63,853 nucleotides of DNA, filler included, from Octopus bimaculoides (GCF_001194135.2; 6 parts of 5 records of this genome joined end to end with filler, not necessarily neighbours in it), one strand, 5' to 3'; shown: positions 24,151 to 60,735, counted from the whole stretch's first letter. Program-made: numbers and translations. Notes: generated by a model from the sequence alone, not told the origin.

Positions 24151-24217
24151 CGGCTGATTTTACCAATGGGTTTCGTGCAGTCCTATTATACAACCTTACG
24201 CGCATCAGAGTTAGCCG
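24151..24217 (-). ncRNA. Degenerate type I hammerhead-like motif
   Basis: CGGCUAACU-CUGAUGC-GCGUAA...CUGCAC-GAA-ACC CAUU GGU-A-AAAUCAGCCG. Substitution A9C; stems I and II partly decayed. Confidence 0.5.
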
Positions 24218-24250
24218 ATATGGATGGGAATATATATATATATATATATA

Positions 24251-24350
24251 NNNNNNNNNNNNNNNNNNNNNNNNNNNNNNNNNNNNNNNNNNNNTTAATT
24301 AATTAANNNNNNNNNNNNNNNNNNNNNNNNNNNNNNNNNNNNNNNNNNNN
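24251..24350. other. Assembly spacer: 44 N + TTAATTAATTAA + 44 N (12-mer also at 44828, 50406, 56546, 61367)
   Basis: Identical 100-bp construct five times; the palindromic 12-mer has stop codons in all six frames. Confidence 0.95.
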
Positions 24351-24363
24351 TATATATATATGT

Positions 24364-24403
24364 ATTGTCCGATGAACGGGAACGTGAAACTCCGAGTAAC
24401 AGT
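24364..24403 (+). ncRNA. Compact type I hammerhead-like motif (U4C)
   Basis: AUUGU-CCGAUGA-ACG GGAA CGU-GAA-ACU CCG AGU-A-ACAGU. All three stems pair in register. Confidence 0.7.
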
Positions 24404-24952
24404 CTTTTGTTATATTTCTGCTGCTTTTAAATAAAGTATATATGTATATATATATATACACGTATATAAATATATACATACATATATACATATACACATG
24501 TACAATTCTGTATTGGCAGTGTATTGTCATGCCTTGGCGTGTATGTGTGTGTCTTAGTGCTTGTGTGCCCTCATTGGTTTACGCTCCTCATTTATTGATT
24601 GGAGGCTGTTTTTCTGGGCTCTTCACTGGTTCTTCAGGTTCCTTTCTTAATGTGGTCTTTATATTTCTAGTAATTGTAGGTGACGGGTGTGTTATTTATT
24701 TTTTTCAGGATATTTTTTGGTGAGTTGGTGATGGGCTTGGGTTTTTGCTCTCGAGCGTCTATGCGTATAGTGCTAAACGATTTGATAAAAGGTTGTTCAT
24801 GAACGTAGTTAGCTGTACTACAATTGAGGACATATCATTTGTGAGTGATTATATCCCTAATGAATTGTGCTTTTCACAGCTGGGCGATTTTGAGGGATTG
24901 CTTTGTATATAAGAACAGAACTTTATGTTTGTTTGCAATGGATTTTTGCGTT

Positions 24953-25078
24953 GTACCCTTATCAGACGGGTAGTCATGATGGGTGAAACTGGGCTTCGTG
25001 TATTTTACCCCGAGTGTCACTTTGATGGCATGCACTGCTCTCTCATTCAGCAATAATAATAATTACAATAATAATAAC
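24953..25078 (+). mobile_element. Probable LINE 3' end with (AAT)n tail
   Basis: GC-richer segment ending ctctctcattcagc followed by (aat)n. Clade not resolved. Confidence 0.45.
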
Positions 25079-25204
25079 TGCTACTTCCATAAAAGTAACT
25101 TTCAACATCCTCTCTTTTCAAGGGATTTACAAAGGACACGTTCAGAAGAATCGCAAAAGCCTCGGTATCAGGAAGGTAAGAAATATTAAAAAAAAAAAAA
25201 GAAT

Positions 25205-57250: not shown

Positions 57251-57464
57251 TCTTTGCGGCAGAGGTTCTTGAGCGCTTATTATCTAATCGTTGCACGTTG
57301 CATCCTGTGCTCAGATGTCTCCTGAGACCGTGCGACGAAGGCTCGTGTTCGTATATCATCTAGTCTATTCCTTCACCGTTCGCGTGTCTCCTGAACTCGC
57401 CGTTGATGCTTTGTAAGGATCTTTCGATTTTGTCAACCTAATGAAATTCCTAACACACATGCAT

Positions 57465-57850
57465 ACCACACACACACACACACACACACACACACACACA
57501 CACACACACACACACACACACACACACACACACACACACACACACACACACACACACACACACACACACACACACACACACATACACGCACATACAAACA
57601 TACACACACTCAAAGTCAATGATACACATATGAAGAGAAAGAGTGAAAGATGAGAGAGTGTGGTAAATATATAAAGAGAGGGAAAGTTTACAATGAGAAA
57701 AGCACAAAAGACAGGGAGAGAGAGAGGAGAGGGAGAGACAGAGACAGAGAGAGACAGAGAGACAGAGAGAGAGAGACAGACAGACAGAGAGAGAGAGAGA
57801 CAGACAGACAGAGAGAGAGAGACAGAGGGAGAAAGAGAGAGAAAGGAGGG
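57465..57850. repeat. (CA)n and (AG/ACAG)n microsatellites inside the Helitron
   Basis: Direct observation. Confidence 0.95.
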
Positions 57851-58664
57851 TATCTTTTATGTGACTCTCACAGAATTTGATAGTTGAAAATTAACTGAAA
57901 ATGTTCACATTTGGGCAATTTATGTAATTTTTCACGCAGAATCTGATTGTGAGATTCCTTCAGGAGCTATATTTACATACCTTTAACGTTACCATAAACA
58001 AATTTGAAAGATATATATATATATATATTCGACAGGCTTCTTTNNNNNNNNNNNNNNNNNNNNNNNNNNNNNNNNNNNNNNNNNNNNNNNNNNNNNNNNN
58101 NNNNNNNNNNNNNNNNNNNNNNNNNNNNNNNNNNNNNNNNNNNNNNNNNNNNNNNNNNNNNNNNNNNNNNNNNNNNNNNNNNNNNNNNNNNNNNNNNNNN
58201 NNNNNNNNNNNNNNNNNNNNNNNNNNNNNNNNNNNNNNNNNNNNNNNNNNNNNNNNNNNNNNNNNNNNNNNNNNNNNNNNNNNNNNNNNNNNNNNNNNNN
58301 NNNNNNNNNNNNNNNNNNNNNNNNNNNNNNNNNNNNNNNNNNNNNNNNNNNNNNNNNNNNNNNNNNNNNNNNNNNNNNNNNNNNNNNNNNNNNNNNNNNN
58401 NNNNNNNNNNNNNNNNNNNNNNNNNNNNNNNNNNNNNNNNNNNNNNNNNNNNNNNNNNNNNNNNNNNNNNNNNNNNNNNNNNNNNNNNNNNNNNNNNNNN
58501 NNNNNNNNNNNNNNNNNNNNNNNNNNNNNNNNNNNNNNNNNNNNNNNNNNNNNNNNNNNNNNNNNNAATATATAAATTAGTACCATATTATGCCACTTAT
58601 GATTGACAGTTGACTGGACACTATTCAGTTTTTTTTCTCCGTGTTTTTCTCCTTGTCTCCGTAT

Positions 58665-58701
58665 TCTTTCTGTTGAAGAGCGTAGCTCGAAACGTCAAAG
58701 A
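58665..58701 (+). ncRNA. Minimal (Penelope-type) hammerhead-like motif, A6U
   Basis: UCUUU-CUGUUGA-A-GAGC GUA GCUC-GAA-ACGU-C-AAAGA. Palindromic loopless helix III. Confidence 0.65.
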
Positions 58702-59669
58702 CTTTCCGTATTCCCGAGCGTCATACTAATACATTCTTTTGTTATTTACACCACATGTCCTCGCCTGTTGTTTTTTCGTATATTCTCCCATATATATATA
58801 TATATATATATATATTACGTGTTGCGAGAATTTGAAGCTTGATCATTTCAATAAATGGTTCCAGTCCAACTTTAAAGGACATCACATAATTACATTCATA
58901 ACACATCGATTTCGTATACTGAAATTTATGGAAATCATGTGAATGAGTTTGAAATGTAAAAAGATGTAGTTTCGTTCATCTAGGTTCTTGTGTAAGCCAT
59001 TAATCTCACATACACTTATATAAACTATACATTTAATTCCTTCTTTCATTTCATACAGGACCTTTAAACTGTAACTGTTAGTAATTAATGCCACATTGAG
59101 AACATTAGACATGCTACGAGCCACCTATAGATCAATTTTTATCTCTTTGACGAAATAGAATTGATTTCCTATATGCCGTTAATAACTCAGAAGAAAGTAG
59201 AAATCTTGTACAACCTGATTTCGCCGTGGCTGAGTTCACTGAGTTTACATAGCATGTGCCTCAGGATGAAATTTTTATAAAGCTTCATCTACTTTTTGTC
59301 ACATTACATTACAACAGCAAATATGTGTTTGCTTTGTTTGAAAAGTAGTAATATTTCGTACGGAAAATGTTAAGTGCTTGCGCTAAATTTCCCAGAAAAT
59401 GTCAATACACTGATTAATGGTAACATTTTGAAAACAATCCAAGAAGTTGACATACAAATAACAATTTATGCTTAGATTCTTAGAGATTATATCATAACTT
59501 TCAGTTGCAACGTTGCAGATATTTCCAAATATAAAGAATTATTTTTAGAAAATAAAGTCTTGTATTAGACTAATGCGTGTATTTGCTTGTAAACACCCAT
59601 ACTCATCTATGTATATATTGTATAACCATCTGTTTACATTCATACGCGTGTGAATGGAGGAAGCATGTG

Positions 59670-60258
59670 TGTGGTCATGTGTGTAGATAGATACAAACAC
59701 ACAACTTCACTGTGTCCCTGTCATTTTTACTTGCCTCTCCTTAATTCTTTTGTCCCTCTGCCTCTACCCCTCTCTCTTCTCTTTCCACGTGACCGGTGTT
59801 CGGCCAAGCCTGAACTTTCTTTCTTGGGCGGCCGTTGTGCATGCAGCATCGTTATTCCCCACTGTACCTGTGAAATCTTTATTTCCATACACGCCAGCTT
59901 AATTTAATTCGCCCTTAGTCGAAAGACATCTGTTGTTATGTCCTGTTATTATTCCTACTGTATTTGTGTAACGTTGTTGGGTTTTTTTCCGTCCTTGTTT
60001 TTGTATACATTGGCTGCTTTCTTCCAAGGAATCTAATGCTCTTAGCTTAGTTCTTCCTTGGCTGGCCAGATTGGAGCAATATCGAGAATAACCAGCCGAA
60101 ATTGCAAGGATAATCTGGATCTCGACTGAAGAAAGAAAACTCCGAATGACCTGTCCGTGTTTTCTTTGTATCGTCTATCTGGATGTTTTGTCCCTTTCTT
60201 GTATCACCTAACTCTCTGGATGTTTTGCGTTCTTGTTCCATTCTGTATTATATATATA
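59670..60258 (+). mobile_element. Structured interspersed repeat ending in (TA)n and carrying hammerhead core elements
   Basis: GC-richer block with several perfect helices (ccaaggaa/ttccttgg 60024-60061; ggctgg/ccagcc; tcgaga/tctcga) and CTGAAGA at 60126. Confidence 0.5.
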
Positions 60259-60673
60259 NNNNNNNNNNNNNNNNNNNNNNNNNNNNNNNNNNNNNNNNNN
60301 NNNNNNNNNNNNNNNNNNNNNNNNNNNNNNNNNNNNNNNNNNNNNNNNNNNNNNNNNNNNNNNNNNNNNNNNNNNNNNNNNNNNNNNNNNNNNNNNNNNN
60401 NNNNNNNNNNNNNNNNNNNNNNNNNNNNNNNNNNNNNNNNNNNNNNNNNNNNNNNNNNNNNNNNNNNNNNNNNNNNNNNNNNNNTATATATAATCATAAA
60501 TATACAGGGATTAGCAGGAGCCTGCTTCTCCAACATACTGAGAATTCAGAAATAGCAGTCAAAGAACTACTGATTCTAAACTACAAATTTTTTCTCTTAC
60601 GGATGGCGATATTTATGGCACACACAGAACAGAAAACAGAAGAGAAGAGTAAAAACAAACCTGCCTTTAGTTA

Positions 60674-60735
60674 ATTGGGTACGACGTTTCACGGTTAAGG
60701 GTATGAAGTTCCCTATTCCGATCTTCAGCCTCAAT
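60674..60735 (-). ncRNA. Type I hammerhead ribozyme candidate with intact core
   Basis: AUUG(A)GG-CUGAAGA-UCGG AAU AGGG AACUUCAUA CCCU UAA CCGU-GAA-AC GUC GU-A-CCCAAU. Predicted cleavage after GUA at 60680. Confidence 0.72.

Follow-up and report, generated by a model that had tools for sequence, protein, structure and literature searches.

A split hammerhead motif beside a (TA)n run in Octopus bimaculoides DNA and similar layouts at the 3' ends of Naiad elements

Penelope-like elements (PLEs) of the Hydra clade carry canonical hammerhead ribozymes near their 3' ends, and a preference for (TA)n is recorded for 26 of the 27 families listed by Craig et al. 2021 (PMC8557442). Many Naiads, a further group of PLEs, also insert in (TA)n (PMC8557442). 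According to the same article, they are devoid of canonical hammerheads and contain words, labelled 'HHR_core/half_core' and left unexplained, whose second half sometimes stands on either side. Minimal hammerheads that are solo and highly heterogeneous have been described in the thousands for each metazoan genome (Cervera and de la Pena 2014, PMC4209133). Here we describe five hammerhead-like motifs in DNA of Octopus bimaculoides (GCF_001194135.2). The window, meaning the whole stretch that was analysed, comprises 63,853 nt, and the motif analysis covers this window. Four of the motifs (1, 2, 3 and 5) represent PLE hammerheads at (TA)n, of ordinary form or, for motif 1, decayed. Motif 4 is apparently an undescribed split permutation of the hammerhead, well supported as a layout and predicted to be active; from its context we infer a Naiad origin.

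Hammerheads permuted in a non-circular manner were described by Eckert 2023 (PMC10085705). Three blocks, S (cleavage block), G (GAAA block) and C (CUGAnGA block), are there arranged as types SGC, CSG and GCS, of which SGC and CSG cleave, and in an SGC example all four helices, including the bridge, are required. The examples in the covered part of that article come from metatranscriptomes, metagenomes and one bacterium, with no animal retrotransposons among them, and type CSG is drawn from two metagenome sequences.

Motif 4 (60060-60132, + strand) consists, from 5' to 3', of the stem II 5' strand, a bridge strand, the cleavage block, the GAAA block, the bridge partner, and a stem I strand with CUGAAGA. 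The displaced stem II strand (positions 10.1-10.6; 60060-60065, +; G10.1 = 60060) forms 6/6 pairs with 60092-60097 (C11.1 = 60097). Next comes a bridge strand (60066-60072, +), whose helix (7/7 pairs with 60112-60118) links stems I and II at their outer ends. The cleavage block (60076-60087, +) is composed of a stem III strand at 60076-60080 (U16.1 = 60080), H17 at 60081 and a stem I strand at 60082-60087, and the predicted cut lies between 60081 and 60082. The GAAA block (60092-60105, +) contains the 3' strand of stem II, G12-A13-A14 at 60098-60100 and the second stem III strand at 60101-60105 (5/5). The last part (60120-60132, +) brings the second stem I strand (60120-60125, 6/6) and CUGAAGA at 60126-60132, with no stem II strand after it. 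All 24 pairs of the four helices (I 6/6, II 6/6, III 5/5, bridge 7/7) are Watson-Crick. The core bases C3, U4, G5, A6, G8, A9, G12, A13, A14, A15.1-U16.1 and H17 are all present, and helices I, II and III surround the core. Block order is S-G-C, not the circular, pseudoknot-free C-G-S of classical types I, II and III. The stem II strand, usually found 3' of A9, is located 66 nt upstream of the core; the G10.1-C11.1 pair is retained despite the position of G10.1 72 nt upstream of A9. Motif 4 thus also departs from types SGC and CSG, in which block C is intact and no more than 1-2 nt separate CUGAnGA from the stem II strand on its 3' side.

The first-pass annotation had placed this motif at 60076-60146 (+) with a local stem II. 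That extent and topology have to be replaced by those given above, because stem III cannot form together with a local stem II, and a type III hammerhead with stem II 3' of the core was rejected for the same reason. The sole 6-bp partner of the strand preceding GAAA within 120 nt lies upstream, at 60060. Two further readings were rejected. Motif 4 as the antisense of a coding sequence (open frame 59902-60174, -) has no homologue, giving one weak, unrelated match, and a fourth helix closing A9 to G10.1 (60049-60059 with 60133-60141) has a pair probability of 0.02 and is not seen in Naiad ends.

When only nested pairs are allowed, the ensemble joins bridge and stem III into a single stable hairpin (mean pair probability 0.99 and 0.97), to which stems I and II stand as pseudoknots. 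Between bridge and stem III (60073-60111, +) there is an internal loop, 60073-60075 / 60106-60111, composed of a 3-nt bulge and tandem GA/AG, which we take to fit the kink-turn consensus. Two additional helices are possible around motif 4. One, noticed by eye, is an 8-bp upstream hairpin (60024-60031 with 60054-60061), which the extra GG of the family at 60059 would part from stem II; the other is a tail pairing of 6 bp (60071-60076 with 60140-60145). Such helices could serve as an on/off switch of the ribozyme.

Scanning the window for the three blocks in any order gave one match, in the order S-G-C (cleavage block 60080, GAAA 60098, CUGAAGA 60126). Among shuffled windows, the same scan matched 12/1495 at 5/4/5 bp and 0/1495 at 6/5/6 bp. 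A descriptor of the whole split layout matched motif 4 alone in the window and 0/1437 shuffles; it was built from motif 4 itself, so this test is not blind. For family variation and depth, two DNA contig sets and two RNA runs (about 6% of each), from two organisms coded A and B, were mapped at 80% likeness on 58567-61000, which holds motifs 3-5 and not motifs 1 and 2. The loose-end consensus of 42 contigs of the motif 4 family differs from motif 4 at two of 30 bases, namely H17 (A to C, each of which is allowed) and the outermost pair of stem I; this gives the layout weak support.

File S5 of Craig 2021 lists 54 Naiad consensus sequences, and for 52 of them, all but 2_Dst and Cmel (last ~450 nt), the terminal 330-600 nt were examined by eye. 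Ten of these 52 3' ends have the split layout: Bfor, 3_Chem, Amil, Aacu, Anas, 2_Movir, Plae, EuTe, Obim and Ovul. They represent seven unrelated sequence types and five phyla (labels of File S1), with comb jellies, cnidarians, an acanthocephalan, a crustacean and octopuses as hosts. The core, G10.1-C11.1 and a non-G H17 are kept in all ten, and a stem II partner 3' of the core occurs in none of the seven types. Pairs in stems I/II/III and bridge number 6/6/5/5 in Obim and Ovul, 6/6/10-12/10 in Amil and Anas, 5/4/5/9 in 3_Chem, 4/6/6/7 in 2_Movir, 6/6/3-6/8 in Plae and 5/6/9-10/5 in EuTe. Complete type-CSG hammerheads were found, again by eye, in six nematode Naiads (1-3_Nbra, Hcon, Hpol and Asuum). 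Naiad Ptep is SGC-like with a poor stem II, and Smim, 1_Dst and 4_Dst have core and bridge only. Just after the open reading frame (ORF), bivalve and hemichordate Naiads and two from Clytia have a different conserved GC-rich motif in their 3' ends; common to many hammerhead-less Naiads, it is possibly another structured RNA or ribozyme. The 3' end of Naiad-1_Movir is presumably twister-like and that of Naiad_Parc presumably hepatitis delta virus (HDV)-like, which suggests ribozyme swapping among Naiads.

All five motifs are located near (TA)n, as the first-pass annotation stated: a run of at least 4 TA units is found 41-181 nt away, and it lies on the 3' side in 5/5, a strict polarity. The probability that a random 50-nt interval has such a 3' run is 0.129, and the five motifs form only three clusters (0.129^3 = 0.002). 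CUGANGA words have such a 3' run within 250 nt in 6/27 cases. Proximity to TA may have guided the first choice of motifs, a possible selection bias. The window itself (GC 0.37, 25 gaps, 61 TA runs of at least 4 units) is microsatellite-rich eukaryotic DNA with scattered transposon remnants. Gaps flank every motif cluster, and those between motifs 1 and 2 and between motifs 4 and 5 mean that these spacings are not real distances.

Motifs 3-5 lie within high-copy repeats. Element 3 (58567-58789, +), a very high-copy repeat, has its left end in a gap and ends at the TA run 58790-58815. Element 4 (59700-60248, +; left edge approximate) is a 5'-truncated high-copy repeat with a T-rich tail, ending at the TA run 60249-60258; it stands tail to tail, across a 226-N gap, with element 5 (60493-60800, -; 5' edge approximate), the 3' end of which meets the TA run 60485-60492. 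The single-copy spacer 58824-59759 (no strand assigned; depth 51.6 in X1) served as depth baseline. Over this spacer, elements 3-5 reach 10^3 to 5x10^4 times the depth in organism A (about 49,000-fold at motif 3, 18,000-21,000-fold at motif 4, 1,300-31,000-fold along element 5), summed contig depth being an order of magnitude only and not a copy number. Depth climbs toward the TA end, stops at the TA run and falls gradually toward the 5' side; in organism B, 61 contigs continue into TA at 60258. The three families are present in both organisms, with the 5' half of motif 5 just 12-fold in B. Elements 3-5 are thus dispersed high-copy repeats, truncated at the 5' side, with a hammerhead near the sense 3' end, as in PLEs. 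At 60863-61000 depth climbs again, where a further high-copy repeat begins immediately 5' of element 5. Motif 2 is held by element 2 (24362-24437, +), 76 nt between two TA-rich runs, and motif 1 by element 1 (24050-24229, -), a 180-nt stretch between TA runs 24041-24049 and 24230-24250. Among the self-BLAST matches listed, elements 1 and 2 matched only TA runs and short chance words elsewhere in the window; together with stems that look unlike by eye, this upholds, as far as tested, the earlier description of the motifs as unrelated.

All five motifs occur where they were first reported as hammerhead-like, two of them needing correction: motif 4 in topology and extent, as described above, and motif 1 in being decayed. 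Motifs 2, 3 and 5 are of type I, with C-G-S order, stems I and II and a palindromic stem III; motifs 2 and 3 each carry one core change and motif 5 one bulge. A type I descriptor was run with one core mismatch permitted and 12 local shuffles as control. At its strictest setting that still matches, motifs 2 and 3 are the sole matches, with 0/12 shuffles; zero core mismatches gave no match in the window. A third match, 61102-61152 (-), falls within the shuffle rate and was rejected as chance. Motif 2 (24364-24403, +) has the core CCGAUGA (U4 = C) and a predicted cut after 24398, and its 3' half equals 20 consecutive bases of the sea-cucumber Hydra-2_Ajap hammerhead. Next to it, at 24490-24900 (-), a stop-broken ORF-like stretch heads toward the TA run beside the motif; it has no Pfam match. 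Motif 5 (60674-60735, -; H17 = 60680) has an intact core, a stem II of 3 bp with U.U at 10.1/11.1 and a palindromic stem III. Its stem I is 6/6 after removal of a bulge at 60731, a base absent in some family copies, and the hairpin in loop II is changed yet still paired in the loose-end consensus. U after A9, U before G12 and the palindromic stem III of motif 5 are a Hydra-clade signature, as in many rows of File S2; for motifs 2 and 5, this signature and the (TA)n context are a shared trait and not the protein definition of the clade.

Motif 3 (58665-58701, +; predicted cut after 58696) is a minimal type I hammerhead with stem I 5/5, stem II 4/4, a palindromic minimal stem III, and core CUGUUGA with one extra A. 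At 58670-58677 (+) it bears U at the normally invariant core position 6, as does the loose-end consensus of 14 contigs. This family, the most abundant here, may have a natural A6U core or may have spread with a dead ribozyme. In motif 1 (24151-24217, -), A9 is C, stem II is unformed in both registers tried and the proximal stem I is broken, so that neither core nor stem II of a type I hammerhead is intact; a near-palindromic stem III (4/5) and the distal stem I (11/13) remain. We infer that motifs 2 and 5, perhaps also motif 1, derive from Hydra-clade families and motif 3 from another clade with a C-terminal endonuclease. Among protein traits, Naiads have an N-terminal endonuclease, a CxC motif and a DKA motif, and the Hydra clade has RWK, DKT and CxCX5C motifs. 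Because no PLE ORF lies in the window, clade labels are taken from RNA layout and TA context only.

Our reading is that the five motifs are 5'-truncated tails of several PLE families, likely inserted at (TA)n, and that motif 4 is a split hammerhead, likely of the Naiad clade, predicted to self-cleave after 60081; we give it a probability of roughly 0.7. The earlier suggestion of diverse ribozyme-bearing retroelements at (TA)n stands in the sense that high-copy repeats with their 3' ends at TA are likely PLEs, and the (TA)n association is already known from Craig et al. 2021 (PMC8557442). The general idea is right and published; the permutation of motif 4 is the one surprising item, and it was missed. 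With somewhat less assurance, we also favour a broader statement: that Naiads carry active non-circular hammerheads in at least six animal phyla. Those of nematodes would be complete type CSG, and those elsewhere would be opened inside the core, with A9 apart from G10.1, and bent by a kink-turn in this genome and in octopus Naiads; motif 4 would be one of about 10^4 copies in this genome.

Insertion may proceed as follows, a model drawn from the depth gradient and the literature. GIY-YIG endonuclease would nick (TA)n, and reverse transcriptase would start near the RNA 3' end and usually stop early, leaving tails of 76-550 nt. In motif 4 RNA, the bridge and stem III would fold first as one hairpin. 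This hairpin would bend at the kink-turn-like loop, and its loop would pair with both flanks, giving stems I and II. The result would be a normal core in which A9 is unjoined to G10.1 and G8 and G12 are placed as in the solved structure; the roles of G8 and G12 are those of Zhan 2024 (PMC11300833). Once 60081 is cut from 60082, three helices (18 bp) and not one would still hold the 5' product; a nick with religation, or a swap between tandem copies, would therefore be likelier than quick release. Motif 4 would thus process a tandem precursor RNA, not release its product at once.

Several observations weigh against this picture. The nested minimum-energy fold of motif 4 pairs part of the core with upstream bases. 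No covariation within the family is visible among the variant rows listed, and the kink-turn-like loop is confined to motif 4 in the window and to two octopus Naiads (Obim, Ovul). Naiad pairs were counted by eye, some with G.U, and carry no alignment statistics; Aacu, which otherwise pairs as Amil and Anas, has a single mismatch in stem I and another in stem II, Bfor (2/6/7/16) has a stem I of 2 bp, Esco has the split order with a weak stem II, and 31/52 Naiad 3' ends show no hammerhead form in the stretch examined. Three 11-mers of element 4 gave 0 matches to the Naiad consensus sequences. Element 4, with (TA)n at its 3' end and no canonical hammerhead, has Naiad traits, and since it lacks a sequence match to the published families it would be a further one. 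A PLE reverse transcriptase or GIY-YIG domain, a link that the first-pass annotation proposed to look for, was matched by none of 270 of the 277 open stretches of at least 50 aa in the window, which is expected for truncated tails. In the two RNA runs, the repeats are covered equally on both strands and the single-copy flank (58824-59759) has zero reads. Read ends had been proposed as a sign of cleavage; no pile is listed at a predicted cut, the single one listed being at 60251, away from any cut site. Read ends were set aside as evidence on activity. The link between A9 and G10.1 was assumed unbreakable by Eckert 2023 (PMC10085705), no hammerhead open at this place was found in the literature, and the pseudoknot (PK) hammerhead of Zhan 2024 (PMC11300833), unlike motif 4, keeps it joined within a pistol-like block order. 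In Anolis, finally, the Poseidon hammerhead acts with the help of its protein, is not required for insertion in vitro and leaves no read ends in RNA-seq (PMC11167929), contrary to a simple view of self-cleavage.

Among other explanations, the weightiest, still an unlikely one, holds that the split fold is real and conserved and does not cut by itself: it would depend on a second RNA copy or on a protein, either that of the PLE or one that binds kink-turns, or would be a binding or priming structure. The protein-assisted Poseidon hammerhead fits such a role, as do the minimal hammerheads of metazoan PLEs, which are poor cleavers in vitro (PMC4209133), and the open A9/G10.1 joint may weaken the core. 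No split or CSG case lacks a catalytic base, however, and with 3-12 bp their stem III is stable in the monomer, unlike that of dimer-type minimal motifs. Slightly less probable is an origin of the motifs from non-autonomous non-LTR (non-long terminal repeat) retrozymes or circles resembling short interspersed nuclear elements, rather than from truncated PLEs. Elements 1 and 2 are indeed just 180 and 76 nt long with TA on both sides, no ORF is present in the window, and retrozymes have been argued to derive from the pseudo-long terminal repeats (pLTRs) of PLEs (bioRxiv 10.64898/2026.07.22.740005). Non-LTR retrozymes, also put forward in the first-pass annotation, are nonetheless unsupported here: no tandem array is present at any of the five motif sites, depth falls gradually toward the 5' side as in truncated copies, and the layouts match autonomous Hydra and Naiad families. 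A partial tandem (pLTR) or inverted copy, a trait of PLEs, was not seen within the window, in which gaps flank every cluster.

That everything is ordinary PLE debris, with motif 4 a chance match or a relic lacking a catalytic fold and hammerheads confined to motifs 2, 3 and 5, seems improbable. The descriptors were designed after motif 4 had been seen, loose thresholds (4/3/4 bp) match 385/1495 shuffles, and motif 4 has neither an Rfam match nor a read-end signal; yet the same block order, in other letters and with pairing intact, recurs in seven unrelated Naiad types of five phyla, and G10.1-C11.1 is retained in every split Naiad. We consider least probable of all that the link with TA is mere background and not targeting, TA runs being common and perhaps arising from element tails or assembly breaks. 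In its favour, a TA run is found within 200 nt of 26% of random intervals, the clusters are just three and no empty insertion site was seen. Against it, the 3' polarity holds in every motif, repeat depth ends at the run, and a (TA)n preference of the Hydra and Naiad clades is published (PMC8557442).

If this is true, the stated defining difference of Naiads, absence of a hammerhead, is overturned, and the 'half-core' words left unresolved in Craig 2021 are accounted for. Non-circularly permuted hammerheads would move from a rarity of environmental sequences to an abundant component of animal genomes. A permutation would be added that the current three-block model excludes, because that model takes the A9-G10.1 link as unbreakable. 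Ribozyme censuses of invertebrate genomes would be undercounts, because the split form is missed by all standard descriptors and by Rfam.

Searched with the window at E up to 1, and with three short stretches at E up to 10, Rfam gave no hammerhead match for any motif, the matches obtained being microsatellite noise. Folding of the single strand gave non-significant z-scores for all motifs, a method uninformative for pseudoknots and small junctions. Viral contigs contained 0 family copies, and one metagenome match to the family was rejected as chance, since it sits in a bacterial-looking coding region. Elsewhere in the window, five scaffold spacers of 100 bases, each with a 12-base stop marker between two runs of 44 N, occupy 24251-24350, 44784-44883, 50362-50461, 56502-56601 and 61323-61422; the marker is an assembly artefact, and TA runs stand at the opening of most such gaps. 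A 72-nt tandem repeat at 31604-32957 spans a 688-N gap. Tc1/mariner transposase remnants are present at 18700-19900 (-; PF01498) and 33674-33901 (+; PF17906), and two weak DUF6451 matches at 35831-35983 (+) and 42364-42654 (-) are likely remnants of long interspersed nuclear elements. At 25080-26000 (-), broken reading frames end in a TTA-type run and have no Pfam match; by eye, they presumably resemble the restriction-like endonuclease domain of a non-LTR retrotransposon.

In the full-text literature, a body of sources in which subscription papers are mostly outside coverage, no hammerhead of permuted form was found for animal elements, Naiads included. 'Type-SGC' was found only in Eckert 2023, the supplement of which, outside the literature covered, could list animal examples. 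The main text of bioRxiv 10.64898/2026.07.22.740005, as far as covered and apart from its supplement, does not treat a permuted form. A 2026 paper (PMC13725137) cites just Eckert 2023 and two others for unusual hammerhead forms, one of which (PMC10162972) contains no such form in the parts covered.

Compared with described systems, motifs 2 and 5 are like the hammerheads of Hydra-clade PLEs (PMC8557442) in being of type I, in sense orientation close to the 3' end and at (TA)n, with U after A9 and before G12 and a palindromic stem III. They differ in the C4 of motif 2 and the hairpin in loop II of motif 5; no ORF is attached here, and no motif resembles the Hydra-1_Obim hammerhead by eye. Motif 3 shares with minimal hammerheads (PMC4209133), in which stem III is palindromic or missing and serves dimer action, a short stem I, an extra base between 9 and 10.1 and a palindromic stem III. 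It differs in core position 6, which is U, apparently throughout the family; from these hammerheads motif 4 departs in its stable stem III and topology. Type I hammerheads related to PLE pLTRs are also a trait of non-LTR retrozymes (bioRxiv 10.64898/2026.07.22.740005), which are defined by tandem units, unlike the five sites described here. Element 4 resembles Naiad PLEs (PMC8557442) in (TA)n context, heavy 5' truncation and the split layout found in 10/52 of them, and differs in matching no listed consensus and having no ORF in the window. The PK hammerhead (PMC11300833) has the same G8 and G12, and its helix II is likewise aided in its role, by a pseudoknot together with an extra helix that is tied to helix I. 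Unlike types SGC and CSG (PMC10085705), motif 4 has a broken block C, its stem II strand and one bridge strand lying 5' of block S; with type SGC it shares the S-G-C order, a 7-bp bridge between stems I and II, a 4-nt linker from I to II, two pseudoknots and an intact core.

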